Source: a virus
Lineage: Duplodnaviria; Caudoviricetes
Reading direction: 5' to 3' (one strand)
IMG/VR virus record: IMGVR_UViG_3300013016_000004
Span: 1-53,524 of that record
DNA: 53,524 bases
The notes beneath the pieces are model-generated. The model saw only the letters and a program-made list of their open reading frames with translations, made no database searches and had not been told where the DNA came from. Positions 11,211-36,394 of the stretch are shown here, one piece after another. Made by a program: the position numbers and the translations under genes. Numbering within the stretch: the stretch's first letter is position 1; each line of letters opens with the position of its first letter.

Positions 11211-12748
11211 GAATCCACCTCGAAGCCTTTAAGGGGATTGCCCCACGCATTGAGCCGCATCGTCTGGCCGACAACGCGGCACAACAGGCGCAGAACTGCC
11301 TTCTTGATTCGGGCAGCATCCGCCCACTCAAAGACGCCTCGTTTGTAGCCAGCCCCACAAAGGCCGGAACAATCAAGAGCTTGTTCAAGTACGGCGAGTT
11401 CTGGTTCAACTGGATCAACGACGTTTCATGCCTGCGCTCACCGACCAACGACACCGAAGACATGGTGGTTTTCACCGGGGAAGGTGTGCCGAAGCTCACC
11501 TACGCCTCCATTGCGACAGCGGGTGGCGACTATCCAAGCGCAAGCTATGAACTCGGCACGCCAATCCCCACGACCGCGCCGGCCGCAACGGTCGCGGGCG
11601 CCGCATCAGGGGACGACCCAACCGACCGCACCTATTTTGTCACCTTTATCTGCACTTACGCAGGCTTGCAGTTTGAGGGCGCACCCTCTGATCCGAGCAA
11701 CCGCGTCACGGTCAACCCTGGGCAGAGCGTCAACGTCACGCTGCCCTCAACGCCTGCCGGCAACTACATTTTCACGCACAAGGTGATCTACCGCACCGTT
11801 GGCGACACCATCCGGCGCATGGCGACCGTGGCCCACACCGCTACCGATTGGACCGACACCTACGAAACAGGCGATTTAGGCGTCGATCTGGTCACGGACA
11901 ACTGGTATCCGCCGCCCGACGATTTGACCGGCCTGGTCTCTCTGCCCGGAGGTGTTATGGCGGGCATTTCCGGCAAACAGGTCTGCTTCAGCGTACCGTA
12001 TCAGCCGCACGCATGGCCTCCCGACTGGCGAAGGATTGCCCGCGACACGCCGGTTGCCCTTGGCGCGTTTGGCAACACGTTGGTTGTTCTGACTGACGGA
12101 CAACCCGAAGTGGGCGTTGGAACGTCTGACCCGGAAAATCTTTTTCTTGAGCGGGTCGAGATGGATCAGGCGTGTATCGCCCCGCGCGCCGTGGTCGATC
12201 TGGGCTATGTCGTGGCGTTTCCCTCCCCTGACGGGCTTTTTCTGGTCGGCCAGGGCGTAACGCGCAACGCCACAGAACAGATATTTCGCAAGGAGCAGTG
12301 GCAACCGCCCGTCTTTGGCGCGGCGCACGATGAGAAATACTTCGGCTTTCGAGAAAGTGGCGGCTTTATCTTTGACCCGCGCACCGGAGACTGGACCGAG
12401 CACGACATTACCGCCACCGCCGCATGGCGCGACCCTGGCACGGATATGCTCTACGTTGCGACCTCTGACGGAATTATGCAGTGGGAAGGCGGCAGCGCCA
12501 AAACATTCGTCTGGAAATCCAAACTGTTTCGCGTACCGCCGGGGAGCTTCGCCTCGATCCGCGTGGAAGGTGGGCCGGTCACGGTCACTCACTATCAAAA
12601 CGGGATTGAATCGTTCTCCGCAAGTATTCAGGACGAGGTATTAAGGCTTCCTTCAGGCGAGATGGCGCGCAAGCACGAAATCAAACTTGAAGGAAACACA
12701 ACGGTCGATGCCGTCACCATCGGCAGTTCTGTCATGGAGGTCCGCTAG
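11207..12748 (+). CDS. Tail nozzle / stabilisation-like protein
   Basis: F.G.APR..P..L....AQ.A.N N-terminus, FS.PY.PHAWP and WKSK.F motifs; TTGA overlap start. Confidence 0.65.
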   Translation: MRIHLEAFKGIAPRIEPHRLADNAAQQAQNCLLDSGSIRPLKDASFVASPTKAGTIKSLFKYGEFWFNWINDVSCLRSPTNDTEDMVVFTGEGVPKLTYASIATAGGDYPSASYELGTPIPTTAPAATVAGAASGDDPTDRTYFVTFICTYAGLQFEGAPSDPSNRVTVNPGQSVNVTLPSTPAGNYIFTHKVIYRTVGDTIRRMATVAHTATDWTDTYETGDLGVDLVTDNWYPPPDDLTGLVSLPGGVMAGISGKQVCFSVPYQPHAWPPDWRRIARDTPVALGAFGNTLVVLTDGQPEVGVGTSDPENLFLERVEMDQACIAPRAVVDLGYVVAFPSPDGLFLVGQGVTRNATEQIFRKEQWQPPVFGAAHDEKYFGFRESGGFIFDPRTGDWTEHDITATAAWRDPGTDMLYVATSDGIMQWEGGSAKTFVWKSKLFRVPPGSFASIRVEGGPVTVTHYQNGIESFSASIQDEVLRLPSGEMARKHEIKLEGNTTVDAVTIGSSVMEVR

Positions 12749-18913: not shown

Positions 18914-21900
18914 ATGAGCAAGGAACTGCTTTCGGTCATTAACAAATACCGCAACCCGCAACCCGAACCGGAAGAGGTTGAAGACCGCTCAACCGGCGTT
19001 CTCGGAGATACCGGGCGCATGGTGGGCCTTGGCCTTAACCAGCTGGCTGACCTTGGCGGCTTTGTGCTTGAAAAGGCGGGCGCTGAGCGTGCCGGTCAAT
19101 GGGTGCAGGACCGTGCGCAAAACCGCATGGAAGAGCTTGAACTGCAACTGACCCCAGAGCAGCAATCGGCCAACCAGAAGCAGTTTACCCGCACCGCAGA
19201 CGGTGAACTTGGAGTGGGTGAAGCCTGGACCGACCCGCGCTCCTATCTGGGCCTTATGGCGCAATCTGCCCCGTCGATGGCTGCAGGGCTTGGCGTAGGC
19301 AGTGTTCTCTCCAAGGCTGCAACCTGGGCGCTTCGCGGTTCACGCACACTAGGCGCAGCTGTGGGCTATGGGGCCGGTGAAGGCATGGTGGCCGGAGGAC
19401 TTGGCGGCAAAGAGGTGGTTGACGCCATTCGCGGCGCGTCCTACCAGGATCTGGCACAGCTTGAACCTTTTCAGCAAGCCTACCACAGCATTGAAGATGA
19501 AAGCCTCACGCACAAAGAAAAACTCGACCTCGCTCGTGAGAAGGTGGAAACTTCCGCATTCCTTGAAACAGCCGGCAAGACCGGGGCGGTGACGGCCATT
19601 CTTTCGGCACCTTCCGGGGTGATTTTTGACCGGATGCTTCGCGGAATTGGACTAAGTAAGCCTTCCGTGCCGCGCCGCTCCGATGTTCTCAAATACGCCG
19701 CCGCAGAGGGTGCGCAGGGTGGACCCCAGGAAGGCTCAGAAGCCTACTTTTCGGCCAAGGGCATTCAGAAATATGTAGACCCCTCCATCGACCCAACCGA
19801 GAACGTCCTTGAAAGCATGGTGGCAGGCGGCATTGCCGAGGCCGGTATGGGTGTTGGTTTTGGTGGCGGCGCGCACCTTTCCGGACGGAGCAGATACCAA
19901 CAAGCCGCGCAGCGCAAAAGCCAGCTTGAGCAGACCCTGTTCGATGAAAGCGGCCAGGCCAGACGCGATGCCGACCCGCGCGCCGTGCAGGAATATCTTG
20001 ACTTGACCGACGCAATGGAGCAGACCTGGGGGCAGCAGGGCCAGCCCGTCGCCTCCCCTTACCGCCAGCCTCAGACTTCGCCTGACAGTCAACTTGGCGA
20101 GACCATTCCCGGGGAACCGTTCGACCGCTACCGCGCAGGTCTTGAAGGGATGCAGGACGGTGAGACCATCCCCGGCGAAAAGCGCCGCGTGGACGTCCTC
20201 AACCCCGAAGGTGATGTGACCCGCGACCTGGTGGTGCCGCGCCCCCCGCAGATGCCGCAATTTTACGGCGAGGATTTGGGCGACACACAACCCGTTCGCC
20301 GGCCTCTGGGTCTTTTGCCTTCTCCGGTCGAAGACATCGAGGGGCAGTACGCCAATCAACTCCCGTTGCAGGACGTGATCTATCAAGGAGGTCCTATCCC
20401 ACAGAAGTCACCTCGGGGCTATGACCCGCGCGGGAGTTCAGACGACGTTCAGCAGCAGATCAACGCCCCCGGCCAGACGGTCCCGGAACCAGAGCAGACC
20501 AAGGGCGCGCAGATCGACGCCTTTCGCAAGAACAGAAAGCCCGCCGTCCTGTTTACTCCCGGACAGACCGTACCGCGCAGACTTCCCAAGGGCGCAAAAC
20601 TTGCCACGGTGCCGGACGGAACGCTGATGTACCGTGACGAGGCGAGCCTTGAAGCCGCACTTGACGGACGCATGGGCGAGGCGTTGGGCTACGGCATTGA
20701 CCAGAAACCTGTTTCCGAAACCGTTGTGACCGCCCGAGACGACCAGGGCCGCGTGGTGCAGGACGTGTTGACAGACGGACGCCCTGAAGTTCTTGACGCC
20801 GCACAGCAGGCCGCAGGAGAGGGGGGGAGCGTTGAACAAAGAAGCGCGCAGGAGGCGTTGAGCGAGAGAGTCACGACATTGCAGCCAGAGCGCCGGCGGT
20901 TTATCGAGAGCAAGGTGCGCGAACTTGGCAGTGTTGATGCAGTAGACGCGAAGTATCGAGGTAAAGCCCCGGTTGATGCCTACGCCAGAGAGTTCGCCCG
21001 GCAGCAGTTTGGGAGTGAAGCACGGGGAGAAACCAGACCGACCAAACGACCCGCCGAGCTATCGAGATCCGACCAGCGTAACGAGCCTGCGAAAGATCCT
21101 CAAGCAGAGGCAGTCGCCAAGGCCGTTGATGGACGCCGCAATGCCCAAGCCTTTACCGTCACCGACCCGCAGGCTAAGATGGACGGATATGTGTTCGTCA
21201 ATGGTGGCCGGAAGAACGATAAGTGGCAGGTCATTGGTCCAAACGGCAAGCCGCGCCCCGTAAGCCGCACTTTGCTTGAGCGGTTTGATCGGGCGAGGAG
21301 TCAGGGGCAGACGCAACCGTATGTACCTGCCGGACAAAAAACCGGACAAGAAGCCGGACAATTCCCGGACATGGACGAGATGGTGCGCGAAGCGGCCCGC
21401 TGGCGCGGGGCGGCCCTGAACTTTGCAGATACCCTGGACAATCGAGGCAAGATGCGCGTCTCCAAACAGACCACCAAGGGCGACCTCGATGCTTACCTGA
21501 TGCGCCGGTTTGGGATTGATGAGACAGCCGCCCGTGACGTGTCCAACGAACTGACTCGCCGCAATATCCAAGATGACAGGTCCGCCGATCCAGCAGAATA
21601 CGCCGGTGAGCCGTGGGCGAAATCTCAAAAACCCGCCGATCTGCCAAGCACAGACGCGGTTACGGCACAGACGAGGCCAGCAGGACGTACAGACGCCCAA
21701 CGCGCCAACGATGAACGTCTACGCCGTGAGCGCAACAAGGTTAACCCTGAGACAGATGACATTATCCGTGCGATCTCCAAACTCGGTGGCATTGACATGG
21801 AGCAGGCCCGCAGAGAATGGTGGGGCACAGCCATCACCGATGTCTCCAAGGAATTGCGAAAACGACAGGTGTTCGGCAAGCCGGTACTTCGCCGGAAGAA

Positions 21901-24900
21901 TGGCCGCACCCTCGACGGTATGGTTGAAGCCCTGCGGGAATATGACTATCTGCAACCAGATGTAGACGGCAATTACACCATCAACGGAATGCTTGAAGCA
22001 CTCGACAGCGCCATTCGCGGCCAGGACGTGCGCTCAGAGCAGTATCAATACGACGAGAACATTTACGAAGAAGCGCCGCCGCAGCCCGATGTGGATGAAT
22101 ATTTTGCCTTCGATGATGCGGAGCTTGCTGAGGACGGGTATAATGATCTAAGTGACCCTGCGCGTGAAGCCTATGAAACGCTCGCAGAGCAGATGGACGC
22201 TGATTTCCTTGAACGCCTTGCTATCGAATCGGAAGGTTTAAGCGATGCCGAATACTACCAAAAAGCAATCCCCCTTCTCCAAGAGCGCCTTGGACAAGTT
22301 CAACAAGCTGACGCCGCAGGAGCAGGAACAAGTGCTGAAGGTTCTCGCCAAGACGGGAGCCAGAGCGGGCCGCAAAGTGATCGAGGACAAGTCCTAACCG
22401 AGCAGACCGAAGCAGGGGAGCAGACCAAAATGTTTGCCACCCCGCCGACTTTCGGAAAAAGACCGCAGGGACAGAACGCCACGCTTGATGACATGGCGCT
22501 GTATTCCGAACCATTGGAACGTGCAGAAAATGCACGGCAGGGCGATATGTTTGATTCCGCCCCCAATGCCGAAGAGCAGACGACAGAGGCGGCAGGGGAG
22601 GACATTGAAGCTAGAATAGCCGAGGCAGAAAAGAATGGTGTTGCTTTAAGCGATTCTGACAAGAAGAAAATCGTTGAACTGTCAAGGGAGGCAGAGGACC
22701 AGCGGAGAAAAGCGGGAGTGCTTGCCGATACGGACCCGATGAACAAGGGCAACGCCTTTCCTTTAGGTGTCGGCTTCACCAAAATGACAAGACGGAAAGA
22801 AAGGGCCATTGACTCGTCGATAGACAAGGCGACAAAGGCCAACGCTTTGTTCGGCAAGGCTGAATCGGCTGAAAAAAGTATTTCCGCGATGTTGGAGGGC
22901 AAGGGAACCGAATCTGATATTGCGGAAAAGGCGAAGAGAAAAGCAAGAACCCGCCTTGAACTGGCAGCAAAGTTTTCCGGTCTGAGCAAGGGCGATGTCG
23001 TCGGCGGAATGACCGTTGAGCGGGTGAGCAAGGACCGTGACGGATATCCCTCTTCTTTCACCATTTCCGGGAAAGACATCATCAAGGGTGTCAACGACAA
23101 GGTTGATATTGTCCGGGAATTTTTTGGCGGCGACAAGGACGGCTACCGTGAATTAATAAATGAAGTGAGGTCTAAGGCGGGAGAGCAGCCGACAGAGACG
23201 GCAGGAAACGACAGTCCTGAGAGCATTGTGCTGACTGACTCCGAGGCCAAGGAAGGAAGAAGGCTTGAACGACAGATAAAAGCGGCGAAGGCAAGAGGAG
23301 ACGGAGACGCTGTTGATGCCCTTGAAGAAAAGATGGAGGCCAGAAGGCAGAAGATATACCAAAGGGTGAAAAGGGAAAGCAATCAGCCGCAGACGGCTGA
23401 AAGCACAGACACCAAGATTGAGGACTTCGGGGAAAAAATCGGCGGGGCGCGCAAAGACATGACGCCTTCACTCGACAGAACCTTCTCCGATGACGACATT
23501 GCCTCAATGCCGCTGAGCAAGATCTGGCCGACCAAGGAAGTTGACCAGATCGAGGACAACACTCTTGCCGCAATCGCCACGACGATTCGTGCGGAAATCC
23601 CCGCAAAGCCGCGCAAAAGCTACAACGTGGACCGTTGGGTCGAAAAGGTCAAGGCGATCCGGGAGTTGATGCGTCACGCGCAAAGGCTCGGGCGCGATGC
23701 GTTTCTTGAAAAACTGCGGCAGAATTACACCCTCACCAAACTGGCCGACAAGATAGAGACTCTTGAGAACATCGACCGCAAGCATTGGGGGCGCATTGAG
23801 AGTGTTCAGTTTTACCCCGACGCTTTCCAGTACACGGATAATGGAACCGTCAGCAAGCCCATGACCGGGGCCGTGGTAGACAAGCGGCACAAGACCATTG
23901 ACGGCAAAGTGACACCCCAAGAGGTCGCCGAAGAGTTGACCAAAATCCTTGAGGGGCAATCGAGCAACAAGCGCATTCAGTTCGAGGTGCGCGGGCGCAA
24001 AGGCGCATTCTTTATCAACAAGAATGGCGATCCTGAACGCCGCAGGCTTAAAGAGTTCTCCTCTTCGAAAGAAGCCTTCGACTTCCTCAAGGACAACTAC
24101 GAGGACGTTGTGGCGCAGTGGGAGGCGGTCAAGGAGCGCGATAACGTCAAAAAATCAGACGTGCGCAGCAAAGAGAACCGCCCCAGGGCCGGAGCAAACT
24201 ACCGAAACGGCAAGGACGTAACGCCGGAACAGTTTGTCGATGCGTTTGGCTTTCGCGGCGTGGAGTTCGGAAATTGGGTCGGGCAGGGCAAAAACTCAAG
24301 AGAGCGCCAGGGGATGCTCAATCAAGCTTACGATGCCCTGATGGATCTCTCCAACATCGTCGGCATTCCCCCCAAGGCCATATCCTTAAACGGCACCCTT
24401 GGTCTCGGCTTTGGTTCGCGCGGCAGAGGCGCGGCAGCGGCACACTTTGAGCCGGACACTTTAGCGATCAACCTGACCAAGACCCGTGGGGCGGGAAGTC
24501 TTGGGCATGAATGGTTTCACGCTTTGGATAACTATTTCTCCCGCCTGCGGGGTGGAGAGGTCACGCTTCGCCAGGGCATGGGAGCGCAAAACGCCTATCG
24601 GGAAAGCAATTTCATCACCCACCGGCCCGAACCAATGATGGTTCACAAAAGCCAGCGTTCTACACCAATCACCAGGGCGCGGCTGGCTGAATTGCGCAAA
24701 AGCAACCCCGGCAGCGGCTATCTGGCCGAAGAAAACTGGATCGTTGACCCGAACCACAAGCAGGGTGTGAGGCCGGAGGTCGAAAGCACCTTTGCCGAAC
24801 TGGTGAAGGCTCTCGATGAATCGCCCATGCGTGAGCGTTCCGCCAGAAATGACAAGACGGAAAACGGCTATTGGAGCCGCACCCTTGAGCGGGCGGCACG

Positions 24901-27900
24901 GGCTTTTGAAAACTATGTCATCGACAAGATGATGAAGCGCGGCTTTCACAACGACTACCTTGCAAATGTGGTTGGAGAGGCCGACTTCGCAAGAAACCCT
25001 GACCGCTACCCCTATTTGCTCGAAAGTGAGCTTGAACCGATTGCCAAGGCGTTTGACGACCTGTTTTTAACGGTGAAGACCAAAGAAACCGACCAGGGCG
25101 TAGTACTTTATTCAAGGGGCCAGGAAACAGCAACCTCTCTCCCCAAAGACACCCTGCAATCCCACGTCGCAGGCATCGTTAAAAAGTGGAAGGACAACCC
25201 GCCGATCAACGTCGTGCAAAACGAGGGCGAGTTGCCCCAGGCCATCCGCTCTGATATCGCCGAAGCCAACGCAGACGGTGAGGTCCGAGGCGTCTTTCAC
25301 CGAGGCAGCATCTACCTTGTGGCGGACAACCTCACTACCACCGCCCAAGCTGAGGAAGCCCTCTTCCATGAGGCATTGGGTCACTACGGGATGCGCCGCC
25401 TGTTCGGGCCGCAGTTTAACCAGTCAATGGCGAAGCTCTACACCGCCCTCGGCAAAGAAGCGGGCATTCGCAGACTTGCCGAGCAGTACGGCATTGATCT
25501 TAAAGACTACATCGACAACGCAGGGCATCTTTCCGCCACACAGCGAGAACGCATGATGGTTGACGAACTGGTGTCCCATCTTCTCGGCGACAACGTTCAG
25601 CCCAACCTTGTGCAGCGCGTGGTGGGTGCTATCCGCAACGCCATCCGGCGCATGGGCCTTGCGCAGCTGGCCGACTTCAACAACGCGGATCTTCTGCGGC
25701 TGGTGCGTCTTTCGCGTGAGGCTGTGACCAAGGGCAAGCGCGGCAGTGTGATTGTCACGGCGGCCCCTTCAGTGACGGATTTCAACCAACCCCTTCGCGG
25801 GATGCCTGAGAATATTGTACAGATGATGATGGGGTCGGACTTGTCGCGGGCTGGAGGGCCGGCTCGCCTTGCGAACGTACCCTTGCGCCGATTTGAAAAA
25901 GTGCGTGATGAATTTGCCGACTTGTTGGATAGCCGCGATATTCACCACGGGCTCCGAGTCATGTCGCCGCAACAGGTGATGGATGAAGTTGATTGGCTCA
26001 TGCAGTTTTTCAGCAATGACCCTGCGGCACTCACCCAAGCAAAATCATTGTACCGACCTTTGGAGGTTGCATTCGGCAGCCTTGCGCGGCTGGACAAAGG
26101 GGCAGTGTCGCGCGCACAAAAGCCCACCACAAAGGACATTCCAGATCCGGAAGAAACTTTAAGGGGAGAGGCAGTTGAAGCACGCCAAGATGAGAGCGGC
26201 AAGTGGTTTAAGGTGAATAAGCGTGGCGAGTGGGGTTCTGTGCCCTACGAAACCAAAGCAGAGGCAATGGGCACCTTCGACCCGGCAACCCCGGATATCC
26301 GCTATTCACGTTCCCCGGAAGCCCGCGCTATTCGCAACCCGGCGCTTGATACTTTCGACGCAACGCTAAAAAAACTCGAAGACCGCGTGCATAAGGTGCC
26401 GGAAGTCTACGCGCGCAACTTCGGCTACAACTCAACGCTTGGTTCGGTGCGCGAAGCTCTCAACTCTCTGCGCGGCGGCAAGACCGACTGGCGCACCCAG
26501 CTGCTTGACCGCTACAACCCGATCAAGCAAAACCTTGGAGACGCCGCTTACATTGCCCACCGGATGCTCAACAACGCCGGTAACGTGCTTGCCACATGGC
26601 TTGAGCATGGCGGCATTAAATGGGACGGCGGCGCAACCACAGTCACGGGTAAGGGGCAAGGCTTCCTGCGCTGGTACAAGGAATTGGGGCAGGAAAACGG
26701 GCGCAAACTCTTAGCCTGGATTGCGGTACAGCGGGCCAAGAAACTCGAAGCAGAAGGGCGCGAGAACCTTCTAACTAAGCCGCAGCGTGACGAGCTTGAA
26801 GCCTGGATCGGCAACGACCATGACTGGAAGGCCCTGAATGAAAAATTTCAATCCTACAACAGGGAAATCCTCGACCTTGCGCAAGAGTCTGGGCTGATCA
26901 ACGCCGAGGCCCGCAAGACCTGGGAGGATAATTTCTATATCCCCTTCTACCGCGAGGACGGCACGCTTGACGAGGATGCGCTGCACCCGGTTAAAAGCAA
27001 GCGCCATATCTCGGCACAGATCAAGAGGCTCAAAGGCGGCGAGAATAAAATCTCCGACCTTCTGGAAAACACCATGCGCAATTGGGGGCATCTGATCCAG
27101 GAGTCGCAGCGCAATGTGGCGCGGGCCAAGGCGGTTGACGCTGGTCTTGGACTTGGCTTTATCGAAGAGGTCACACCCCCCGAAGCGATCCGCGAATCAA
27201 AGGCGGCGCGGCGTGAAAGCCAGATTGTCTCCTATGCAGTCGATGGCAAGAAACGCTATGTGCGCGTTGAAGATATGGCTTTGTTCAACGCCATGTCTGA
27301 GGTCAATATCGAATATTTCAACGGCCCGGTCATGCGTCTCTTTGGCATGGCGAAAAGGGGCCTGACCTATGGCGCGACCTTCGGGCCGGCGTTCCGCGTA
27401 GCCAACATGATGCGAGACACCTTGCAGACAGCGGTTGTCTCCAAGTCGTTCATGCCGGTTGTCGATACCGTCAAAGGTGCCGTGCAGGTCATGAAAAACT
27501 CCGATGACTACGTTGCCGTCATGGGTTCCGGCGGCGGCTTCGGACAGGGGTATTTGAACGCCAACGACCCCAAGGCCATGAGCCGACAGATCAAAAAGAT
27601 TGCCAAGCGCGAAGGCAACGGCGCAGCAGGGCGCATTCTCGACACCCCGCGCAAGATGCTTGAGTTCTGGGACTATCTTGGTCACGTCTCGGAGATGGCG
27701 GCAAGAACACAGCTTTACACCAACCACCGCCATGCGGGGAAGACGCACGAAGAGGCAGCCTTCTTATCCCGCGACGTGCTTGATTTCGCGCTCTCCGGCG
27801 AATCAAAATCGGTGCGCGCGGCAATCTCCGTGATTCCATTTCTCAATGCCCGCTTTCAGGGCCTGGACCGTATGTATCGCGGCTGGCAGAACGACAAGCG

Positions 27901-28825
27901 CGCTTTCACCTACAAGGGGGCTCTTCTGTCGGCGGCCACCCTGACCCTGTGGGCCGCGTTCAAAGACGACGAGCGCTACAAGGAGCTTGAAGATTGGGAT
28001 AAGTGGACCTATCACCACTTCTGGATTGGCGATATGCACTACCGCATTCCAAAGGCGTTTGAAGTCGGTGCGCTGTTTTCCTCCCTGCCGGAAGCGGCGG
28101 CGGAGGCCATCAGCGGCAACGAGGACGGCGCGTATTTCGGAGAATTTCTGTGGCACACCCTGAGTCAGACCTTCGCCCTGAGTTACCCGGCACTGATGAG
28201 TCCTGCGCTTGAGGTGCAGGCCAACAAGAGCTTTTTCACCGGGCGGCCCATTGAGAACATAGGCGATGAACAAAAGCCCCCCGGCCTGCGCGCTGATCCG
28301 TGGACCTCTGAGACGCTTAAAGCCATTGGCGAGAAATACAACATCAGCCCCAAAAAACTTGAAACCCTGATCCGTGGACATTTCGCAACGCTGGGCATGA
28401 CGATCCTTGGCGTATCTGATATTGCCTACCAGTGGACGCAAACCAACGAGCGGCCAGCCAGGACAATCAACCAATACCCGCTTGTCGGGCGTTTCGTGCG
28501 CGATCCTCTTGGCCGCACCAAGTACGCAACCCGCGTATACGATACATTCAAAGAGATTGATGAGTTGGCGGCAACCATAAACCATTACCGAAAGTCCGGC
28601 GATCTTGAAATGGCGCGCCAGGTGGCAAGTGAAAACCGCGACACGCTTAAATACAAGGCGTTTGCCCAGGCGGTCAAGCGCCAGCTGTCCAATATCCGCA
28701 AATTAGAGCGCGCCATCTGGCAAAACGAGCGGCTGGACGCTGAGCAAAAGCGTGAACGGCTCGACAACCTGACCGAAAGAAAGCGCACCATTTACAAAAA
28801 GGCATACGAGATCCTTGAAAAATAA
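18914..28825 (+). CDS. Large polyvalent ejection protein (LPD1/LPD5-like, zincin-like motifs, LPD38-like C-terminus)
   Basis: 3303 aa; KIEDFGEKIGGARKD, FGFRGVEFGNW, GSLGHEWFHALD, ARAFE, FHEALGHYG, IPFLNA..QG, YRIPKAFE motifs. Confidence 0.8.
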   Translation: MSKELLSVINKYRNPQPEPEEVEDRSTGVLGDTGRMVGLGLNQLADLGGFVLEKAGAERAGQWVQDRAQNRMEELELQLTPEQQSANQKQFTRTADGELGVGEAWTDPRSYLGLMAQSAPSMAAGLGVGSVLSKAATWALRGSRTLGAAVGYGAGEGMVAGGLGGKEVVDAIRGASYQDLAQLEPFQQAYHSIEDESLTHKEKLDLAREKVETSAFLETAGKTGAVTAILSAPSGVIFDRMLRGIGLSKPSVPRRSDVLKYAAAEGAQGGPQEGSEAYFSAKGIQKYVDPSIDPTENVLESMVAGGIAEAGMGVGFGGGAHLSGRSRYQQAAQRKSQLEQTLFDESGQARRDADPRAVQEYLDLTDAMEQTWGQQGQPVASPYRQPQTSPDSQLGETIPGEPFDRYRAGLEGMQDGETIPGEKRRVDVLNPEGDVTRDLVVPRPPQMPQFYGEDLGDTQPVRRPLGLLPSPVEDIEGQYANQLPLQDVIYQGGPIPQKSPRGYDPRGSSDDVQQQINAPGQTVPEPEQTKGAQIDAFRKNRKPAVLFTPGQTVPRRLPKGAKLATVPDGTLMYRDEASLEAALDGRMGEALGYGIDQKPVSETVVTARDDQGRVVQDVLTDGRPEVLDAAQQAAGEGGSVEQRSAQEALSERVTTLQPERRRFIESKVRELGSVDAVDAKYRGKAPVDAYAREFARQQFGSEARGETRPTKRPAELSRSDQRNEPAKDPQAEAVAKAVDGRRNAQAFTVTDPQAKMDGYVFVNGGRKNDKWQVIGPNGKPRPVSRTLLERFDRARSQGQTQPYVPAGQKTGQEAGQFPDMDEMVREAARWRGAALNFADTLDNRGKMRVSKQTTKGDLDAYLMRRFGIDETAARDVSNELTRRNIQDDRSADPAEYAGEPWAKSQKPADLPSTDAVTAQTRPAGRTDAQRANDERLRRERNKVNPETDDIIRAISKLGGIDMEQARREWWGTAITDVSKELRKRQVFGKPVLRRKNGRTLDGMVEALREYDYLQPDVDGNYTINGMLEALDSAIRGQDVRSEQYQYDENIYEEAPPQPDVDEYFAFDDAELAEDGYNDLSDPAREAYETLAEQMDADFLERLAIESEGLSDAEYYQKAIPLLQERLGQVQQADAAGAGTSAEGSRQDGSQSGPQSDRGQVLTEQTEAGEQTKMFATPPTFGKRPQGQNATLDDMALYSEPLERAENARQGDMFDSAPNAEEQTTEAAGEDIEARIAEAEKNGVALSDSDKKKIVELSREAEDQRRKAGVLADTDPMNKGNAFPLGVGFTKMTRRKERAIDSSIDKATKANALFGKAESAEKSISAMLEGKGTESDIAEKAKRKARTRLELAAKFSGLSKGDVVGGMTVERVSKDRDGYPSSFTISGKDIIKGVNDKVDIVREFFGGDKDGYRELINEVRSKAGEQPTETAGNDSPESIVLTDSEAKEGRRLERQIKAAKARGDGDAVDALEEKMEARRQKIYQRVKRESNQPQTAESTDTKIEDFGEKIGGARKDMTPSLDRTFSDDDIASMPLSKIWPTKEVDQIEDNTLAAIATTIRAEIPAKPRKSYNVDRWVEKVKAIRELMRHAQRLGRDAFLEKLRQNYTLTKLADKIETLENIDRKHWGRIESVQFYPDAFQYTDNGTVSKPMTGAVVDKRHKTIDGKVTPQEVAEELTKILEGQSSNKRIQFEVRGRKGAFFINKNGDPERRRLKEFSSSKEAFDFLKDNYEDVVAQWEAVKERDNVKKSDVRSKENRPRAGANYRNGKDVTPEQFVDAFGFRGVEFGNWVGQGKNSRERQGMLNQAYDALMDLSNIVGIPPKAISLNGTLGLGFGSRGRGAAAAHFEPDTLAINLTKTRGAGSLGHEWFHALDNYFSRLRGGEVTLRQGMGAQNAYRESNFITHRPEPMMVHKSQRSTPITRARLAELRKSNPGSGYLAEENWIVDPNHKQGVRPEVESTFAELVKALDESPMRERSARNDKTENGYWSRTLERAARAFENYVIDKMMKRGFHNDYLANVVGEADFARNPDRYPYLLESELEPIAKAFDDLFLTVKTKETDQGVVLYSRGQETATSLPKDTLQSHVAGIVKKWKDNPPINVVQNEGELPQAIRSDIAEANADGEVRGVFHRGSIYLVADNLTTTAQAEEALFHEALGHYGMRRLFGPQFNQSMAKLYTALGKEAGIRRLAEQYGIDLKDYIDNAGHLSATQRERMMVDELVSHLLGDNVQPNLVQRVVGAIRNAIRRMGLAQLADFNNADLLRLVRLSREAVTKGKRGSVIVTAAPSVTDFNQPLRGMPENIVQMMMGSDLSRAGGPARLANVPLRRFEKVRDEFADLLDSRDIHHGLRVMSPQQVMDEVDWLMQFFSNDPAALTQAKSLYRPLEVAFGSLARLDKGAVSRAQKPTTKDIPDPEETLRGEAVEARQDESGKWFKVNKRGEWGSVPYETKAEAMGTFDPATPDIRYSRSPEARAIRNPALDTFDATLKKLEDRVHKVPEVYARNFGYNSTLGSVREALNSLRGGKTDWRTQLLDRYNPIKQNLGDAAYIAHRMLNNAGNVLATWLEHGGIKWDGGATTVTGKGQGFLRWYKELGQENGRKLLAWIAVQRAKKLEAEGRENLLTKPQRDELEAWIGNDHDWKALNEKFQSYNREILDLAQESGLINAEARKTWEDNFYIPFYREDGTLDEDALHPVKSKRHISAQIKRLKGGENKISDLLENTMRNWGHLIQESQRNVARAKAVDAGLGLGFIEEVTPPEAIRESKAARRESQIVSYAVDGKKRYVRVEDMALFNAMSEVNIEYFNGPVMRLFGMAKRGLTYGATFGPAFRVANMMRDTLQTAVVSKSFMPVVDTVKGAVQVMKNSDDYVAVMGSGGGFGQGYLNANDPKAMSRQIKKIAKREGNGAAGRILDTPRKMLEFWDYLGHVSEMAARTQLYTNHRHAGKTHEEAAFLSRDVLDFALSGESKSVRAAISVIPFLNARFQGLDRMYRGWQNDKRAFTYKGALLSAATLTLWAAFKDDERYKELEDWDKWTYHHFWIGDMHYRIPKAFEVGALFSSLPEAAAEAISGNEDGAYFGEFLWHTLSQTFALSYPALMSPALEVQANKSFFTGRPIENIGDEQKPPGLRADPWTSETLKAIGEKYNISPKKLETLIRGHFATLGMTILGVSDIAYQWTQTNERPARTINQYPLVGRFVRDPLGRTKYATRVYDTFKEIDELAATINHYRKSGDLEMARQVASENRDTLKYKAFAQAVKRQLSNIRKLERAIWQNERLDAEQKRERLDNLTERKRTIYKKAYEILEK

Positions 28826-29350: not shown

Positions 29351-29488
29351 AGTCCTCTGCGGTCAGAAACCCTTTGTGCGCGAGGTGACATGCGGCGGCA
29401 AAATCGTGACCGATGGCAGAGAAGATTCGCCAGATTTTTACTACGAATGCCTTTCCTGCGGCGCAACGTGGAGCGACGGACGCAAGCC

Positions 29489-30037
29489 ATGACCATTATC
29501 CTTGACCCCGGACATGGCGGCGCGGACCCCGGCGCAACACGGGACCACCCGGTCGAAGCCTGGATCTGCCTCAACGTCGCCCTGGCCTGCCGCGATTCCC
29601 TCAAAGGGCATCGTGTGGTCATGACCCGCAACGAGGACGCTTCCACCTCCCTTGCCGCAAGAGTTCTGGCCGCAAAACGCGAAAAGGCAGACCTGTTTGT
29701 CTCGATCCATGCCAACGCCGCAGAAGATACTCGGGCCAGAGGCTTTGAGTGTTTTTGCTACACGGGGAGCCAAAAAGGGCAGTCCTGTGGTGCAAGTCTC
29801 ATCGAAGAATATGCCCGCACATTCCCGCAGCGCACACACCGCACATGGCGACCGAATGAGCCGGTTAAAGAAACCTCAACGCTCTACGTCCTTAAAAACA
29901 CGCCCTGCCCCGCCGTGCTGTTTGAGCTTGGCTTTGTCAGCAACGCAGAAGAACGTATCTGGATGTGCGACGAAGAGACGCAGCAGGAAATGGGGCGCGC
30001 GCTTGCACGGGGGATCAAGCGATGGACTGCCGGGTAA
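29489..30037 (+). CDS. Endolysin, N-acetylmuramoyl-L-alanine amidase (Amidase_3)
   Basis: ILDPGHGG.DPGA, E, FVSIHANA, PAVLFELGFVSN motifs. Confidence 0.92.
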   Translation: MTIILDPGHGGADPGATRDHPVEAWICLNVALACRDSLKGHRVVMTRNEDASTSLAARVLAAKREKADLFVSIHANAAEDTRARGFECFCYTGSQKGQSCGASLIEEYARTFPQRTHRTWRPNEPVKETSTLYVLKNTPCPAVLFELGFVSNAEERIWMCDEETQQEMGRALARGIKRWTAG

Positions 30038-30613: not shown

Positions 30614-31002
30614 TCGGCAACGTCAAACTGCTTGCCGCATCCGGGGCCCTGGTCGCCCTCCTTGCGGGGCTTGCCTACGGGCAATACCACCGCGCTTCAT
30701 CGCTTAAAGAGCAGCGCGACGGGCTGCGGGAAGAGGTGGCCGGTGCCGTGGCTCACGTCGAAGAGCTTGTGGCGCTGCGCGAAGCTGAGCAGGAACTGAT
30801 TGCGCGACGCAACCGTGAAAGGAAGCTGCTTTATGCAGAGGTCAATTCTCTTAAAAAAAATCTCTCCCGCCTTGAAGATCAGGCGTCAATTAGTTGGCGC
30901 AACGCTCGGGTGCCTGATCCTGTGCGCCGGCTGTACCTCGACGGTGAAACCGCAGATCATCCGAATCGCACCGCCGGCGGAACTTCTGACCCCGACGATT
31001 GA
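30610..31002 (+). CDS. i-spanin (Rz-like)
   Basis: N-terminal TM, coiled coil, W....VPDPVRRL. Confidence 0.75.
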   Translation: MIGNVKLLAASGALVALLAGLAYGQYHRASSLKEQRDGLREEVAGAVAHVEELVALREAEQELIARRNRERKLLYAEVNSLKKNLSRLEDQASISWRNARVPDPVRRLYLDGETADHPNRTAGGTSDPDD

Positions 31003-31126
31003 ACCTGAAAGCGAGATCCGCACCAACGAAGAAATGCTCAACCTTCTCTTCGATATGCGCTCTGCCCTGCGCGAGTGCAACGCCGATAAGCGCGCCGTCT
31101 CAGAGTGGGCGCAAGCAAAGGAGTGA
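30833..31126 (+). CDS. o-spanin (Rz1-like lipoprotein)
   Basis: Overlapping alternative frame; lipobox LCAG-C; PPAELL and AL..CN.D motifs. Confidence 0.75.
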   Translation: MQRSILLKKISPALKIRRQLVGATLGCLILCAGCTSTVKPQIIRIAPPAELLTPTIEPESEIRTNEEMLNLLFDMRSALRECNADKRAVSEWAQAKE

Positions 31127-31164
31127 TTATGGCGGCAGGAAGATGCCCGGTGTGTGGCAGTCCC

Positions 31165-31297
31165 TTGACATCCTCCCCTCCCTAAAGGAAGGGGATTCCC
31201 GATCCGGAGACCGAGATGGTTGACGCTTCACAGAAAACAGGCTTCAAGACCCGGAGGTCAGGCGGCGCTTACGTCGTCTCCTATTGCGAGGCTTACG
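31165..31297 (-). ncRNA. omegaRNA-like scaffold retained at the right end of the HNH element
   Basis: GGAG..GTAAG, GTGAAGC and GGAATCCCC hairpin ending TCAA, as in tnpB right-end RNAs; 5' boundary approximate. Confidence 0.55.
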
Positions 31298-31339
31298 GTA
31301 TGTGTTATACTGTAAGTCCATCAGCGATAGGAGATAGAA

Positions 31340-31933
31340 ATGCGACAGTGCTCAAAATGCCAACGAAAACTCAACGACCAGATGTTTACTTCATGGGGGC
31401 GAAACCAGTGCCGGGATTGTCTCAATGCTCTAAGAACGAAGAACAGAAGGAAGAACGGCGTAAAGACTCGGGAACAGCAGCGACTGTACATGCAGGAATA
31501 TCGGAAGAAAAACAAAGACGAGATATTGCAACGCCAAAAAGACTACCGTCGAAACAACGCTATCAAGTGGCTGTGGAAGCAGATGTACAGAAGAAAGGAT
31601 GTCTTAAATATATCAAGGGAAGAATTTTATCGAATCTACGCCGTCCCTCAACAATGCCCAGTGCTTGGTATTCCAATATCATTCGATATGACCAGGGACA
31701 ACTTGCCGTCAGTGGACAGAATAGATTCAAGCCGGCCTTACGAAGTTGGGAATATTTGCATCATGTCATATCGAGCCAACATGATAAAAAGTGTCGGGAG
31801 CGCGGTAGAACACCAGAAAATTGCAGATTGGCTAAATCAGAACGGCTTCGGGGAAATTGCAGGAAAATGTTTCGACTACAAGCACCCGGCCGCCACAACG
31901 GTGCTTTTTGGAAGGGAAAGGAAGCCAATCTGA
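31340..31933 (+). CDS. HNH-type (DRID) homing-endonuclease-like protein
   Basis: N-terminal CxxC..CxxC, basic helix, CPVLGIP, PSVDRIDSSRPY..GN....RAN..K; AGGAG RBS; lower GC. Confidence 0.8.
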   Translation: MRQCSKCQRKLNDQMFTSWGRNQCRDCLNALRTKNRRKNGVKTREQQRLYMQEYRKKNKDEILQRQKDYRRNNAIKWLWKQMYRRKDVLNISREEFYRIYAVPQQCPVLGIPISFDMTRDNLPSVDRIDSSRPYEVGNICIMSYRANMIKSVGSAVEHQKIADWLNQNGFGEIAGKCFDYKHPAATTVLFGRERKPI

Positions 31934-32103
31934 ATTTTGAAAGCGGTTTGCAGGCGCTGCTTCATGCTCACAAGTATGCCATAGTTCTTGTAAACCCACA
32001 ACCACACGAGGAGCGCGCTTTCCTCCCAGGCCTGAACGCCGGGGTCTCCAGCGCGAAGATATGATGAGCGGGCATGTATGCCCTCAATGCAGAGAGAAAA
32101 GCC

Positions 32104-33299
32104 ATGTCCTGGAACGATGACACGGAGCAGGAACTTTTGCGGGTCAAGCGCGCCAACCCCGACTTTGGCTGGCGCAGACTGACCAAGGCGGTCGGCTGCG
32201 GAGAGCGAAAGACCAAGCGCTTCCTTGAACGCTTTGCGGCCGGCAAACACGCCGATGAGCGCCAGGACGAACGCGAGGTGGTCCGGCTTAAACGAAAGCT
32301 CAAGGAGGCCGAAGAACAACTCAAGAAAAATGTGGCATTCAACGCCATTGTCGGCGAACTCAAGAGCGCAAAGCTCAAGCCACCGCAGTGGGTCACGCCC
32401 GAGCGAAGCAGTTCAAACCAGGCCATTGCCTGCGCCTGCCTTGGCGATACGCATTTCGATGAAGTGGTTGACCCGGAGCAGATCGAAGGCTTAAACGCTT
32501 ACAGCCGCGAGATTGCCCTGAAGCGCCTGCAAAAGTATTTTCGCTCCGTGGTGGAGTTGGGCCGTGATTACTTCTCCGGCGTGCAGATCCAGGGGCTATC
32601 GCTCAACCTTCTTGGCGATATTGTCTCCGGAAATATCCACGAAGAGTTGCAGCAGACCAACGAAGCTGGAATCATCGACACATGCCTTTACTGGTCTGAG
32701 CAGCTTGTGGCAGGCATTGAGCAGATGGCCTCTTATTATGGCCGGGTGCATATCGAAGCGGTCGTAGGCAACCACGGACGGCTGAGCAAAAAGCCCGTCG
32801 CTAAAAACAAGGTGCATGACAACTTCGATTACCTGATTTATGCACTGATCGTGCGCCACTTTCGCGGGGCCCCGGAAATCACCATGCGCGCTTCAGGCTG
32901 CTCCGACAGCGACTTTCAGATCTACAATACCCGCTACCGGCTCAACCACGGCGATCAGTTTCGTGGCGGCTCCGGCATTGCCGGGGCGCTCTCCCGCTGC
33001 TGATTGGCGACTCCCGCAAACGCAAACGGGCAATCTCTGCCCACAACCCCTACGACTACCTTGTCATTGGTCACTGGCACCAGACCATTGACCACGGCAG
33101 CATCATCGGCAACGGCACCCTCAAAGGGTATGATGAATACGCTTACGACAAGAATTTCAACTTTGAACCGCCCCAGCAATCGTTCTGGCTCACCGATCCG
33201 CACAAGGGCATTACGCTCAAAGCCCCGGTGCATGTAGTGGACAAGTCCGAGGATTGGGCCATTGAGAAAAAGGAGGTGCCGTCATGGATGGCCGCGTAA
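32104..33299 (+). pseudogene. Calcineurin-like metallophosphoesterase, frameshifted near 32995
   Basis: GDTHFDE, LGDIVSG.IH, VGNHGR, HGD, then GHWHQ and NG.LKGYDEYA in a shifted frame; one extra C restores ALSPLLIGD. Confidence 0.75.
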
Positions 33300-35103: not shown

Positions 35104-35230
35104 TTGACGTCTCCCCACGGATGAATCCGGGGGATTCCTAATTCGCAGAATCTAGCCCGACTGTGTTTAGACACAGACAGGACTTACGGACTCTCCAAAG
35201 GCTGACACCGCCCGCCCGGCGGCCAAGATG
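35104..35230 (-). ncRNA. omegaRNA of TnpB (overlaps tnpB 3' end and right end)
   Basis: Established tnpB locus architecture; terminal hairpin present; 5' boundary approximate. Confidence 0.6.
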
Positions 35231-36300
35231 TTAATTGCTGCGTTGACGTCCCGATCGTGTTCTGCCTTGCAGTCGGGACACGACCAGCTTCGGACAGAAA
35301 GAGGCAGCTTGTCCATGACAAAGCCACACGCCGAGCATCGCTTGCTCGACGGGTACCACTTGTCGATACCGACAAGTTCTCTGCCGTACCAGCGTGCCTT
35401 GTATTCCAGCTGCCGGACGAACTCCGACCAGCTGGCGTCGGCGATGGATTTGGACAGACAGCCGTTGCGCAGCATGTTCTTGATTGAGAGTGTTTCGAGA
35501 ACGATCGTTTGGTTCTCACGGATCGTCTGGGTTGAGAGTTTATGGAGAAAGTCCCGCCGGGTGTCGGCGATTTTCGCATGAAGCCGGGCGACCTTGACCC
35601 TGGCCTTAGTGCGGTTGCGTGAACCCTTTTTCTTCTTCGCCAGCCGCCTCTGGAGCTTCGCAAGCTTTTTCTCGTTGCGGCGAAAAACGTTCGGAGCAGC
35701 CACCTTCTCGCCCGTGGAGAAAACGGCAAAGTGTGACAGCCCCAGATCGACGCCGACTGCGGCCTCAACTTTTGGAAGAACTGCCACCGCATCGTCGCAC
35801 AGCATAGAGACGAAGTATCTGCCCGCTGCATCCTTGGAGACGGTCACGGTTGTGACCTTGGCCGCCTTGGGGAGAGTGCGGGAGAAGCGAATCTTGAGCG
35901 GCTGCTTCATCTTCGCCAGGGTCAACACCCTGCCATCCCACTTAAAGGCGGAGGACGCATAGGTGGCCGCCTGACGATCATGCTTTGAGCGAAAGGATGG
36001 ATAGCGTGTCCGGCCTGCGAAGAAGTTGCTGAATGCCTGTTGCAGGTGACGAAGGGCTTGCTGGATGGGGACACTTGAGACGTCGTTGAGCCAGGCGTAC
36101 TCGGGGTTTTTCTTGAGCTGTGTCAGTGCCGCAGACGTCTCGTTGTAATCGAGGCGCTCACCCTTCTCAAACCAGGCATCGGTGCGTAGGCGCAGCATGT
36201 GGTTGTAAACGAAACGAGCGCAGCCGAACGTCCGGGACAGGACATCTTCCTGCTCGGGCGTTGGGTAGAAGCGAAATTTGTACGCTCGTTTTATATCCAT
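35167..36300 (-). CDS. tnpB: RNA-guided endonuclease TnpB
   Basis: RAYKFRFYPT, FGCARFVYN, GVDLG, IVLETL, CSAC..CPDC, DRDVNAA; all RuvC acidic residues present. Confidence 0.95.
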   Translation of the reverse strand: MDIKRAYKFRFYPTPEQEDVLSRTFGCARFVYNHMLRLRTDAWFEKGERLDYNETSAALTQLKKNPEYAWLNDVSSVPIQQALRHLQQAFSNFFAGRTRYPSFRSKHDRQAATYASSAFKWDGRVLTLAKMKQPLKIRFSRTLPKAAKVTTVTVSKDAAGRYFVSMLCDDAVAVLPKVEAAVGVDLGLSHFAVFSTGEKVAAPNVFRRNEKKLAKLQRRLAKKKKGSRNRTKARVKVARLHAKIADTRRDFLHKLSTQTIRENQTIVLETLSIKNMLRNGCLSKSIADASWSEFVRQLEYKARWYGRELVGIDKWYPSSKRCSACGFVMDKLPLSVRSWSCPDCKAEHDRDVNAAINILAAGRAVSAFGESVSPVCV

Positions 36301-36394
36301 AGCTTACAGTGTACCGCACTTTCGTGTAAAAACCAAGCCAAAACCTGCGCCTTATATCCCCATAGATGAATCTAGGGGTTTTACGGCGCATCCG

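Follow-up and report, generated by a model that had tools for sequence, protein, structure and literature searches.

A phage IS200/IS605-family element in which an HNH endonuclease gene replaces tnpB and the omegaRNA scaffold is kept

Cas12 descends from TnpB elements, whose persistence is under active study. The closest described relatives of the locus reported here are TnpB-only insertion sequences (ISs) of the IS608 type, of which L155 is the nearest; another is resident in the same phage (35104-36394). They share with our element the subterminal hairpins, a tetranucleotide target, a TCAA right end, a seamless empty site, a left-end promoter, and a right-end omegaRNA scaffold. They keep tnpB, whereas our element has a foreign, inverted nuclease gene with its own promoter.

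Phages have a known class of HNH homing endonuclease genes that are free-standing. Like them, the gene described here is small, has its own promoter, occurs as present and absent alleles, and has apparently moved between related backbones, but here the displaced gene is itself part of a transposon. IshB is an HNH-containing OMEGA protein of IS200/IS605, and both IscB and IshB place an HNH nuclease and an omegaRNA between IS200/IS605 ends. These proteins differ in their RuvC/PLMP domains and in a HEARO RNA upstream of the ORF, whereas our element has a TnpB-type RNA at its right end and a nuclease of a PacI-like clade. IscB is described as an HNH-bearing OMEGA nuclease of IS200/IS605 in PMC13565253. 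PATEs, which are non-autonomous IS200/IS605 derivatives, likewise rely on TnpA in trans and often carry an omegaRNA proposed to depend on TnpB in trans, according to the Meers et al. 2023 preprint. They have no protein gene, whereas our element has an intact, conserved 197-aa nuclease gene. IStrons, in which a group I intron is combined with an IS605 TnpB element, also have a second selfish element sharing IS605 ends with guide-RNA machinery, but there the intron coexists with tnpB, and here the nuclease gene replaces it. At the level of literature listings and abstracts, we found no description of an HNH gene replacing tnpB.

Boundaries, target, and natural empty site

The window, that is, the whole stretch of DNA analyzed, is a complete 53.5-kb phage record. 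It contains, in a single copy, an 899-nt element of the IS200/IS605 family, which is a discrete insertion into a phage gene and is derived from a TnpB-only IS. The element and its immediate surroundings comprise:

31165-32063, minus strand: whole element, non-autonomous, IS200/IS605 family (IS608-like); exactly skipped in contigs, with ends homologous to multi-copy TnpB ISs
32064-32067, minus strand: target TCAT (ATGA on the plus strand), 5' of the left end
31129-31164, plus strand: 5' part (12 codons) of an interrupted small zinc-ribbon ORF
32064-32119, plus strand: 3' part (18 codons and stop) of the same ORF; the two parts are joined in empty-site contigs

Read on the minus strand, with a slash at each boundary, the left end is TCAT/CATATC (32063) and the right end is GGGGAGGATGTCAA/GGGAC (31165). 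In contigs from three of the four public runs examined (X3, X7, and X11, from three studies), position 31164 is joined directly to 32064, with exactly 899 nt missing. The interior of the element is also present in these three runs, so filled and exactly empty sites both occur naturally. The empty-site contigs place the 12 codons before the element (MAAGRCPVCGSP) in frame with the 18 codons after it (MSGHVCPQCREKSHVLER), producing a CxxC...CxxC ORF; precise removal thus restores the zinc-ribbon ORF, as the original prediction from sequence had stated.

Insertion 3' of a short specific target with a seamless empty site, and with neither target duplication nor inverted terminal repeats, is characteristic of IS200/IS605 elements and is what we observe here. 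This IS clade targets TCAT: in L046, one TnpB IS is present in three copies that differ in their flanks and all read TCAT/CAGATTCC, and the same target is found at L002, L003, L058, and L155. Subterminal imperfect hairpins are predicted at both ends on one strand, as in IS608, and have homologues at the ends of TnpB ISs. By folding energy neither hairpin was better than shuffled sequences (z of -0.75 and -0.40), and we accept them as real because of their homology and the empty site. The IS605-type ends, TCAT target, and TCAA terminus that had been proposed are thereby confirmed. No match was obtained by blastn in GenBank phages, and single-protein scans of viral contigs with the HNH protein and the neighboring exonuclease-like gene found no uninterrupted locus in a related phage.

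Y1 TnpA (PF01797) was absent from the whole 53.5-kb record; the control was detected in 6 of 14 genomes. This absence bears on autonomy and not on family membership, because a missing TnpA is usual in non-autonomous members (Meers et al.).

Retained IS parts and the inverted cassette

An oppositely oriented cassette, which has its own promoter and encodes a PacI-like HNH protein, takes the place of tnpB in this element; the left end and its promoter, the right end, and the omegaRNA scaffold in its entirety remain intact. Running from the left end to beyond the right end, the parts are:

32014-32055, minus strand: left-end nested imperfect hairpin (outer stem GCGCTG/AGCGCG, inner stem CCC.GGC/GCC.GGG), by DNA fold and alignment to the L155 left end
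31973-32001, minus strand: promoter-like TTGTGG-17-CATACT, formerly driving tnpB; aligns with the L155 promoter region and is absent from the consensus-scan list
31955-31965, minus strand: tnpB start remnant ATGAAGCAGCG (MKQR), aligned with L155 tnpB (MKQRWSFRCYPTPEQE); the likeness stops after codon 4
31282-31954, plus strand: inverted HNH cassette of ~670 nt replacing the body of tnpB; likeness to a TnpB sibling and to covariance model R1 stops at 31281, and likeness to L155 stops after 31955
31340-31933, plus strand: HNH-type (His-Me finger, PacI-like) endonuclease gene, 197 aa, by PHROG, profile, Foldseek, VIA-align, and AF2
31290-31319, plus strand: inverted repeat GGCTTACGG-N11-CTGTAAGTCC in the HNH leader; also in L002, L004, L008, and L010, degenerate in L003
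31284-31311, plus strand: promoter-like site for the HNH gene, TTGCGA-16-TATACT, its -10 preceded by TG, by consensus scan
31165-31281, minus strand: complete TnpB-type omegaRNA scaffold, 117 nt, by R1 and by helices kept among HNH-bearing elements
31174-31195, minus strand: right-end hairpin CCCCTTCC-TTTA-GGGAGGGG, followed by GAGGATGTCAA, which ends in TCAA at 31165
31145-31164, minus strand: flank; putative guide, should transcription of the omegaRNA continue past the right end; placed by position and analogy with TnpB elements (Meers et al.)

The left end, the promoter, and the first four tnpB codons (MKQR) match L155, a TnpB-bearing relative, and the left-end hairpin also resembles the left ends of L003, L058, and L046. 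The remnant ATG at 31965 lies 98 nt inside the left end, behind the TTGTGG-17-CATACT site. A tnpB-like stub, MKQRLQTAFK, had been predicted behind CATACT; its ATG, promoter, and MKQR align with L155, but only ATGAAGCAGCG is demonstrably tnpB-derived, and the remainder of the stub ORF runs antisense through conserved HNH coding sequence. The left-end promoter now likewise reads antisense through the HNH gene. All of tnpB has been lost except the first 4 codons and roughly the last 8, the latter overlapping the omegaRNA, and tblastn found no TnpB within the element.

The right end was assessed with R1, an omegaRNA covariance model of 136 positions trained only on TnpB-bearing elements (n = 9). 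The top match of the model was 31165-31281 (minus strand), with 83.6 bits, an E value of 1.1e-21, and alignment over positions 1-136 of 136. The omegaRNA-like stretch noted earlier as ~130 nt is thus a scaffold of about 117 nt. Across five HNH-bearing elements, 88.4% of 69 pair cells in the omegaRNA helices were paired, versus 70.4% in shuffles (0 of 500 reached the observed value), and 9 of 14 pairs had changed on both sides. One stem-1 pair of our element is non-canonical, and the folding energy of the scaffold is not above that of shuffles. No Rfam family reached its gathering score anywhere in the 53.5-kb window, the HEARO/IscB RNA included.

The cassette junction on the right-end side falls at 31281/31282, and that on the left-end side at ~31954, approximate to roughly 20 nt. 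The interior is, as predicted, an opposite-strand HNH gene, and its 197-aa start is supported by full-length homologues. The promoter consensus scan found 2 sites against 0.8 expected; L002 has TTGACA-17-TACACT at the position equivalent to the HNH promoter. A half-site of the leader repeat resembles the GTAAG box at the 5' end of the omegaRNA.

A TnpB-bearing sibling with nearly the same scaffold is found in the same samples. In X3 and X7, contigs of 147 nt differ from 31165-31281 at 1 position (116 of 117 identical), and a separate X7 contig matches as far as 31281 and then continues with sequence reading like the 3' end of L155 tnpB. At the sample level, the sibling scaffold co-occurs with the HNH element. 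The resident intact IS lies ~4 kb away on the minus strand (35104-36394; TnpB at 35167-36300; target TTAT), and its scaffold scores 39.3 bits on R1, versus 83.6 for the HNH element. The phage has no cognate TnpB for the HNH element.

The HNH protein and related chimeras

The PHROG matches of the HNH protein are endonuclease VII, endonuclease, and HNH families; Pfam gave no HNH family at E ≤ 0.1, and NCBIfam gave none. All structural matches are weak (Z below 8). The best is PacI (PDB 3ldy and 3m7k) by profile (E 0.0058), Foldseek (E 1.9e-3, probability 0.99), and VIA-align (Z 5.8, rmsd 5.2, 102 aligned), and the two proteins share the motif DR.D..GY..N....N.iK. The AF2 model (pLDDT 93.4) has strands at 123-127 and 139-143 followed by a helix at 144-152. 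Among 62 sequences, R127, Y134, N138, N147, and K150 are invariant and D126 is nearly so; the canonical first His gives way to another residue (DR.D), a change also seen in the PacI alignment. The protein differs from PacI in having an N-terminal zinc ribbon, long basic helices, and a conserved C-terminal tail (L.FGR....I), in its mobile-element setting, and in having no methylase partner. Pfam found no RuvC or PLMP-type domain in it, and its best VIA-align match to an IscB HNH reached a Z of only 3.6. We regard this compact PacI-like enzyme as a candidate site-specific nuclease.

Structure modeling predicts a homodimer, with an ipSAE of 0.80 versus 0.00 for the best control, at least 98% of contacts agreeing between runs, and a partner pLDDT of at least 79. 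Of 30 solved pairs, 20 attain this mark, as does 1 of 23 single chains. PacI is a solved dimer, so the predicted homodimer may reflect no more than likeness to it.

The wider HNH family is large and mostly viral (9765 proteins at E ≤ 0.001); the species-genome collection had one distant match only, with 41% identity over 68 residues. All nine metagenome loci with at least 47% HNH identity, representing five distinct elements, have IS ends and an omegaRNA, as does L027. Among 18 loci with more distant homologues, none combined IS ends with an omegaRNA, and all 18 had the gene free-standing. The subfamily bearing the L.FGR....I tail was found only inside IS ends, in six of six distinct elements. 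The search for the same ends with an HNH gene elsewhere thus yielded five further distinct elements, so the arrangement is not a one-off. The HNH-bearing elements lie at different targets (TCAT, TTAC, and TCAC) and in different contexts, and the HNH ORF is intact in all seven copies read. The related copy L008 has lost its left-end hairpin. Conversion appears rare, because none of the 123 further matches to the right-end motif in viral contigs carries an HNH gene of this subfamily.

Four elements (L003, L004, L008/9, and L010) carry the cassette in direct orientation, and two, ours and L002, carry it inverted. With direct orientation the HNH mRNA would extend into the omegaRNA; in the two inverted elements the gene is on the strand opposite the RNA. 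Whatever its orientation and IS backbone, the cassette always adjoins the 5' box of the omegaRNA (conserved GGAG..GTAAG, at the 3' end of tnpB), and TnpB-bearing and HNH-bearing elements share ends, with junctions at this box. The junctions on the left-end side differ, falling at the promoter (L003, L004), at codon 4 (our element), or at codon 51 (L002, which retains 51 tnpB codons at the stub position), so that one simple homing event is insufficient for all loci. Only 2 of 12 inner branches of the HNH subfamily tree are supported, and for this reason the tree fits repeated transfer and co-divergence alike.

Unrelated HNH genes occur in comparable positions. At L058 such a gene sits in the tnpB position, fused to the TnpB C terminus; the backbones of L003 and L058 are nearly identical, and their HNH genes are different. 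Another (NUMOD4 and HNH_3), at L105, adjoins a tnpB 3' remnant and omegaRNA, with no left end seen. L128 and L117 were excluded from the counts, as their HNH-like ORFs near a right end had no clear left end or junction; L130, in which an ORF lies between a TnpB N terminus and a TnpB C terminus, was not counted, the ORF being HNH-like by motif only, with no family match. L059, L097, and L143 have a TnpB C-terminal remnant only, beside neighbors that carry no family name. We also dropped the idea that tnpB generally lies between two GTAAG boxes, as only 1 of 36 distinct full elements had GTAAG in the 45 nt preceding the start of tnpB.

How the HNH gene may relate to the element

In the reading that we propose, to which we give a probability of about 0.5, the IS is non-autonomous, depending on TnpA and possibly also on TnpB supplied in trans, and the gene that has displaced its tnpB encodes an HNH nuclease of the homing type, guided by protein. 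The element would be moved by Y1 TnpA supplied in trans, and among the options originally raised, HNH cargo on TnpA-mobilized ends fits best, given a polymorphism precise at the IS ends in a phage without TnpA. A sibling IS that shares the scaffold might supply a TnpB able to load the omegaRNA and flank of our element, which would then remain protected from loss; the TnpB-bearing sibling in the same samples makes this second option, an RNA guiding TnpB in trans, plausible. The HNH protein would be a dimeric, protein-guided nuclease and a selfish passenger, spreading by displacing tnpB in related ISs. Its cut site is probably at or near the GGAG..GTAAG box; we propose this target because the cassette adjoins the box in both orientations and in different backbones, and the proposal draws on junction positions. 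The element would then be a parasite of TnpB elements, keeping their cis-acting parts and discarding the trans-acting gene.

Passenger genes are known in IS elements, and the HNH gene could have landed in tnpB by accident, with no functional link to the IS, riding on TnpA-mobilized ends and serving the phage or itself in some other way, such as by cutting competing phage genomes. The size and mostly viral nature of the wider family, the free-standing state of its more distant members, and the single copy in this phage all suit such an accident. It fits poorly with the confinement of the tail-bearing subfamily to IS ends, with the constant position beside the omegaRNA 5' box, and with unrelated HNH genes in the tnpB position (L058) or adjoining the same box (L105), and we consider it possible but doubtful. 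It is unlikely that the element is instead a dead relic, immobile since the HNH gene disrupted tnpB, with the filled/empty polymorphism reflecting one old insertion. The phage does lack TnpA and a cognate TnpB, the L008 copy lacks its left-end hairpin, and a stem-1 pair in our element is non-canonical; but the element retains undamaged both of its ends, the left-end promoter, and the full scaffold, with a score at least that of TnpB-bearing elements, the 116/117-identical sibling scaffold argues for a recent event, and intact HNH ORFs in elements at varied targets and contexts also speak against decay.

A further option in the original prediction was that the HNH protein took over the retention role of TnpB, cutting the empty site through the omegaRNA or by recognizing the rejoined target. 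The omegaRNA is fully kept beside the HNH gene in all elements, the clade-specific C-terminal tail and the basic N-terminal helical region have no assigned role, the HNH mRNA would continue into the omegaRNA where the cassette is direct, and an HNH-bearing OMEGA nuclease exists in IscB (PMC13565253). Set against this, the protein resembles a PacI-like dimer, has no RuvC or PLMP-like domain, and is unrelated to IscB beyond the HNH fold; its N-terminal region is common to free-standing homologues without omegaRNA, and its gene is opposite to the RNA in our element and L002. Moreover, a protein-only enzyme could not recognize the differing empty sites of different insertions. With the family mostly free-standing in phages, this option found no support, and we judge it very improbable. 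Nothing indicates that the HNH protein is RNA guided, and the caution to that effect given at the outset stands. We accord only the slightest credence to the specific idea that the tail-bearing PacI-like clade is dedicated to TnpB-type omegaRNA elements as their partner, cutting the vacated site with the retained omegaRNA as its guide or cofactor; if true, an RNA-directed nuclease for transposon retention would have arisen independently and without RuvC.

The locus has consequences for how TnpB elements persist. Replacement of tnpB by an HNH gene with the omegaRNA end kept, the core of the original prediction, is borne out by homology, the covariance model, and the natural empty site. The ends and guide-RNA scaffold of a TnpB element, its cis parts, can persist after the nuclease gene is lost, and HNH genes from at least two unrelated families have repeatedly occupied the tnpB slot. 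In several environments, one such HNH/IS chimera segregates as a live insertion polymorphism. It offers a natural test case for possible use of omegaRNAs in trans, for possible parasitism of transposons by homing endonucleases, which parasitize phage genes, and for the DNA box that would be targeted at the tnpB/omegaRNA boundary.

Ends, insertion site and surroundings of the element

Read on the (-) strand, the element begins at position 32063 as TCAT followed by CATATCTTCGCGC... and ends at position 31165 as ...GGAATCCCCTTCCTTTAGGGAGGGGAGGATGTCAA followed by GGGAC. It interrupts an ORF whose 12 codons before and 18 codons after the element share one frame and together form a CxxC...CxxC mini-ORF. 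Contigs with the exact empty site, 31164 joined to 32064, occur in three of four public DNA metagenome runs (X3, X7, and X11, from three studies), and the element interior is likewise present in these three; in X3, a 787-nt piece spans 31252-32038 with 2 differences. These contigs skip exactly 899 nt, so the boundaries deduced in the original prediction are real, and the site is polymorphic in nature. Many run contigs share with the element no more than its terminal hairpin, or its left end and ATGA, and differ in their flanks, which indicates that ISs with these ends have additional copies.

The phage record (IMG/VR, 53,524 bp, rated 100% complete) holds one copy of the element, and a search of the whole record found no TnpA. 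A single 3303-aa ORF occupies 18914-28825 (+), upstream of the lysis genes. The features around and within the element are as follows.

29390-30037, Amidase_3 lysis gene, near the element
30800-31126, Rz1-like LysC lysis gene, near the element
31284-31311, promoter-like TTGCGA-16-TATACT of the HNH gene
31290-31319, conserved inverted repeat CTTAC-N11-18-GTAAG, between the -10 and the HNH start codon (also in L002, L004, L008, and L010)
31340-31933, (+), HNH ORF, its start preceded at 6 nt by GGAG
32074-33003, exonuclease-like gene (PHROG 284), after the element
35104-36394, (-), resident intact TnpB-only IS, 1291 nt, TTAT target, right end ..GACGTCAA
35167-36300, (-), TnpB of that IS (OrfB_IS605, Cas12f1-like TNB domain, and HTH_OrfB matches), ~4 kb downstream of the element

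The resident IS apparently lies within a second short Cys-rich ORF, with MACDICGKGG... on its upstream side.

The database calls the HNH gene in a shorter, 147-aa form, but the 197-aa length is supported by homologues that align over 97-98% of the query. Searches of Pfam and NCBIfam gave no name for it, and its PHROG matches are endonuclease VII (5.4e-16), endonuclease (9.1e-16), and HNH endonuclease (8.2e-9). The family is large and mostly viral: 9765 representatives match at E<=0.001, of which 8 reach E<=1e-30. A 62-sequence profile matched the restriction enzyme PacI (E 0.0058), aligning the motif DR.D..GY..N....N.iK. The AF2 model is confident (pLDDT 93.4). Its top Foldseek match is again PacI (E 1.9e-3, prob 0.99), and so is its top VIA-align match among all representatives (Z 5.8, rmsd 5.2, 102 aligned), with other HNH domains next. 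These matches are singly weak and mutually consistent. A homodimer was predicted with an ipSAE of 0.80 (best control, 0.00). Of 30 solved pairs, 20 attain this mark, as does 1 of 23 single chains. Agreement in contacts between runs was at least 98%, with partner pLDDT of at least 79. PacI is itself a solved dimer, so the predicted pairing may reflect likeness to PacI only.

TnpB-bearing relatives and the omegaRNA end

Viral contigs commonly carry the right-end motif GGAATCC-hairpin-GGAGGATGTCAA, which occurs in at least 118 stretches. We classed 123 right-end matches, apart from the window and three metagenome loci. Among the matches listed, a full TnpB lay just upstream in the same orientation at 47, a partial TnpB match (mostly divergent TnpBs) at 26, and a TnpB farther off at 2; 6 were cut off by the sequence end, and at 42 no TnpB match was present (the sequence upstream is 1300 nt or longer in 20 of these and shorter in 22). 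One viral contig, L046, carries three copies of one TnpB IS, all with TCAT followed by CAGATTCC; since their flanks differ, TCAT is the target of this IS clade. Their right ends are at 2879, 7557, and 10153, within ~7.3 kb.

The nearest TnpB-bearing relative among the matches listed is L155 (1305 nt), whose left end, promoter, and tnpB start align to window 32063-31955 and whose last 60 nt are ~92% identical to the window's right end. The predicted tnpB-like stub is thus present, but it is tnpB-derived for four codons only: similarity stops after ATGAAGCAGCG (MKQR), where L155 reads MKQRWSFRCYPTPEQE. At the right-end side, the cassette junction is 31281/31282. A TnpB sibling IS with essentially the same scaffold lives in the same samples, because 147-nt contigs in X3 and X7 match 31165-31281 with one difference and a separate X7 contig matches up to 31281 and then runs into sequence that, on the (-) strand, is like the tnpB 3' end of L155. 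The last 35 nt (terminal hairpin) of L002, an HNH element, are identical to those of the TnpB ISs L052 and L112, whereas the remaining scaffold differs, which suggests modular exchange of end hairpins.

We aligned the stretch that runs from the GGAG..GTAAG box through the right end in nine TnpB-bearing elements, leaving out all HNH-bearing ones. In this alignment RNAalifold gave a long-range stem and a terminal hairpin, and 10 of 14 pairs show compensatory changes. The covariance model built from this alignment (R1), run over 23 sources, placed HNH-bearing elements in its top four matches, each at full model length: the window at 31165-31281 (83.6 bits, E 1.1e-21), bearing out the proposed omegaRNA-like right end, then L002 (82.2), L008 (81.5), and L004 (80.2). 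TnpB elements outside the training set scored 27-74 bits, and the resident IS 39.3. Among five HNH-bearing elements, standard pairs fill 88.4% of 69 pair cells (shuffle mean 70.4%, reached by 0 of 500; slid controls, 48-57%), and 9 of 14 pairs have changes on both sides; this alignment was fitted to R1, and the base changes may predate the HNH. The pairing shows no decay, without demonstrating selection since the swap.

HNH genes in the tnpB slot of other elements

A metagenome scan for the HNH protein returned 24 loci, nine with 47-55% identity over about the full length; L027, a viral locus, coincides with L007. These nine and L027 make up five distinct elements, all five between IS ends with an omegaRNA, so the arrangement is not a one-off. 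Their R1 scores were 82.2 (L002), 32.5 (L003), 80.2 (L004-7/L027), 81.5/29.1 (L008/L009, the latter cut by a contig end), and 16.1 (L010). At the 18 loci where the homologue is more distant (L011-L026, L028, L029), R1 gave no match at E<=0.1. L008 and L009 encode HNH proteins with 95% identity. A left-end hairpin with a TCAC target is present in L009; unrelated sequence replaces that hairpin in L008, making L008 a left-end-truncated copy in another context.

IS-associated HNH proteins share a C-terminal tail, L.FGR....I, that free-standing ones lack, and in one representative (P0041) the HNH reads on into a TnpB-like tail. The HNH gene is oriented as tnpB in L003, L004, L008/9, and L010 and inverted in the window and L002. 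Behind its HNH gene, in antisense orientation, L002 keeps 51 tnpB codons that share 57% identity with the window's TnpB. One cassette end always adjoins the GGAG..GTAAG box where the omegaRNA starts; the other junction varies. The half-site of the CTTAC-N11-18-GTAAG repeat upstream of each HNH start resembles this box, and the repeat may serve as an operator, as a hairpin in the mRNA, or as the site of the enzyme. Its flanking bases co-vary in some loci.

Three further loci hold other genes in this position.

L058, 5123-6158, (+), IS with TCAT, whose 11-codon tnpB stub precedes a 252-aa ORF
L105, about 11554-12400, (-), NUMOD4 + HNH_3 gene adjoining what remains of a tnpB 3' end and a complete omegaRNA (68.2 bits with R1)
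L130, about 3046-4033, (+), TnpB N-terminal 95 codons, a 186-aa ORF, a TnpB C-terminal remnant, and a right end

The left end and omegaRNA of L058, the latter following the ORF, are nearly identical to those of L003. In its ORF, an HTH + HNH protein is continued in frame by the C-terminal ~55 residues of TnpB (the zinc-finger/RuvC-III C terminus); the ORF matches PHROG HNH/endonuclease VII and the Pfam TNB domain and is a natural HNH-TnpB chimera. For L105, the part seen covers the HNH gene, tnpB remnant, and right side. A small ribbon-helix-helix-like ORF (MAKERLNLRIEVGRLDKL...) just upstream of the L105 HNH gene, on the other strand, is reminiscent of the Arc proteins that a 2026 preprint names for IS605 elements. 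The L130 ORF is HNH-like by motif only, with no family match.

Proposed mobilization and possible role of the HNH protein

Its ends, its target, and its seamless empty site place the element in the IS200/IS605 family; its gene content sets it apart from TnpB elements. It is not a palindrome-associated transposable element (PATE), because it encodes a protein, and it has no likeness to IscB/IshB beyond the HNH fold. The literature searched gave no account of HNH genes taking the place of tnpB while the omegaRNA is retained.

The element is a precise IS605-type insertion with tnpB replaced and its cis parts intact, in a phage without TnpA, and the arrangement recurs. That the HNH is a plain passenger is an unlikely reading, a dead relic is distinctly less probable, and functional replacement of TnpB by the HNH is the most doubtful. 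We favor, at a probability of about 0.5, a joint reading in which TnpA supplied in trans would mobilize the element, a sibling TnpB may protect it by using its omegaRNA, and the HNH would act as a protein-guided, homing-type nuclease that displaced tnpB. The resident TnpB IS would be a poor helper, since it uses a TTAT target and has a scaffold of a different subtype. Use of TnpB in trans by omegaRNA-bearing PATEs was proposed before, by Meers et al.
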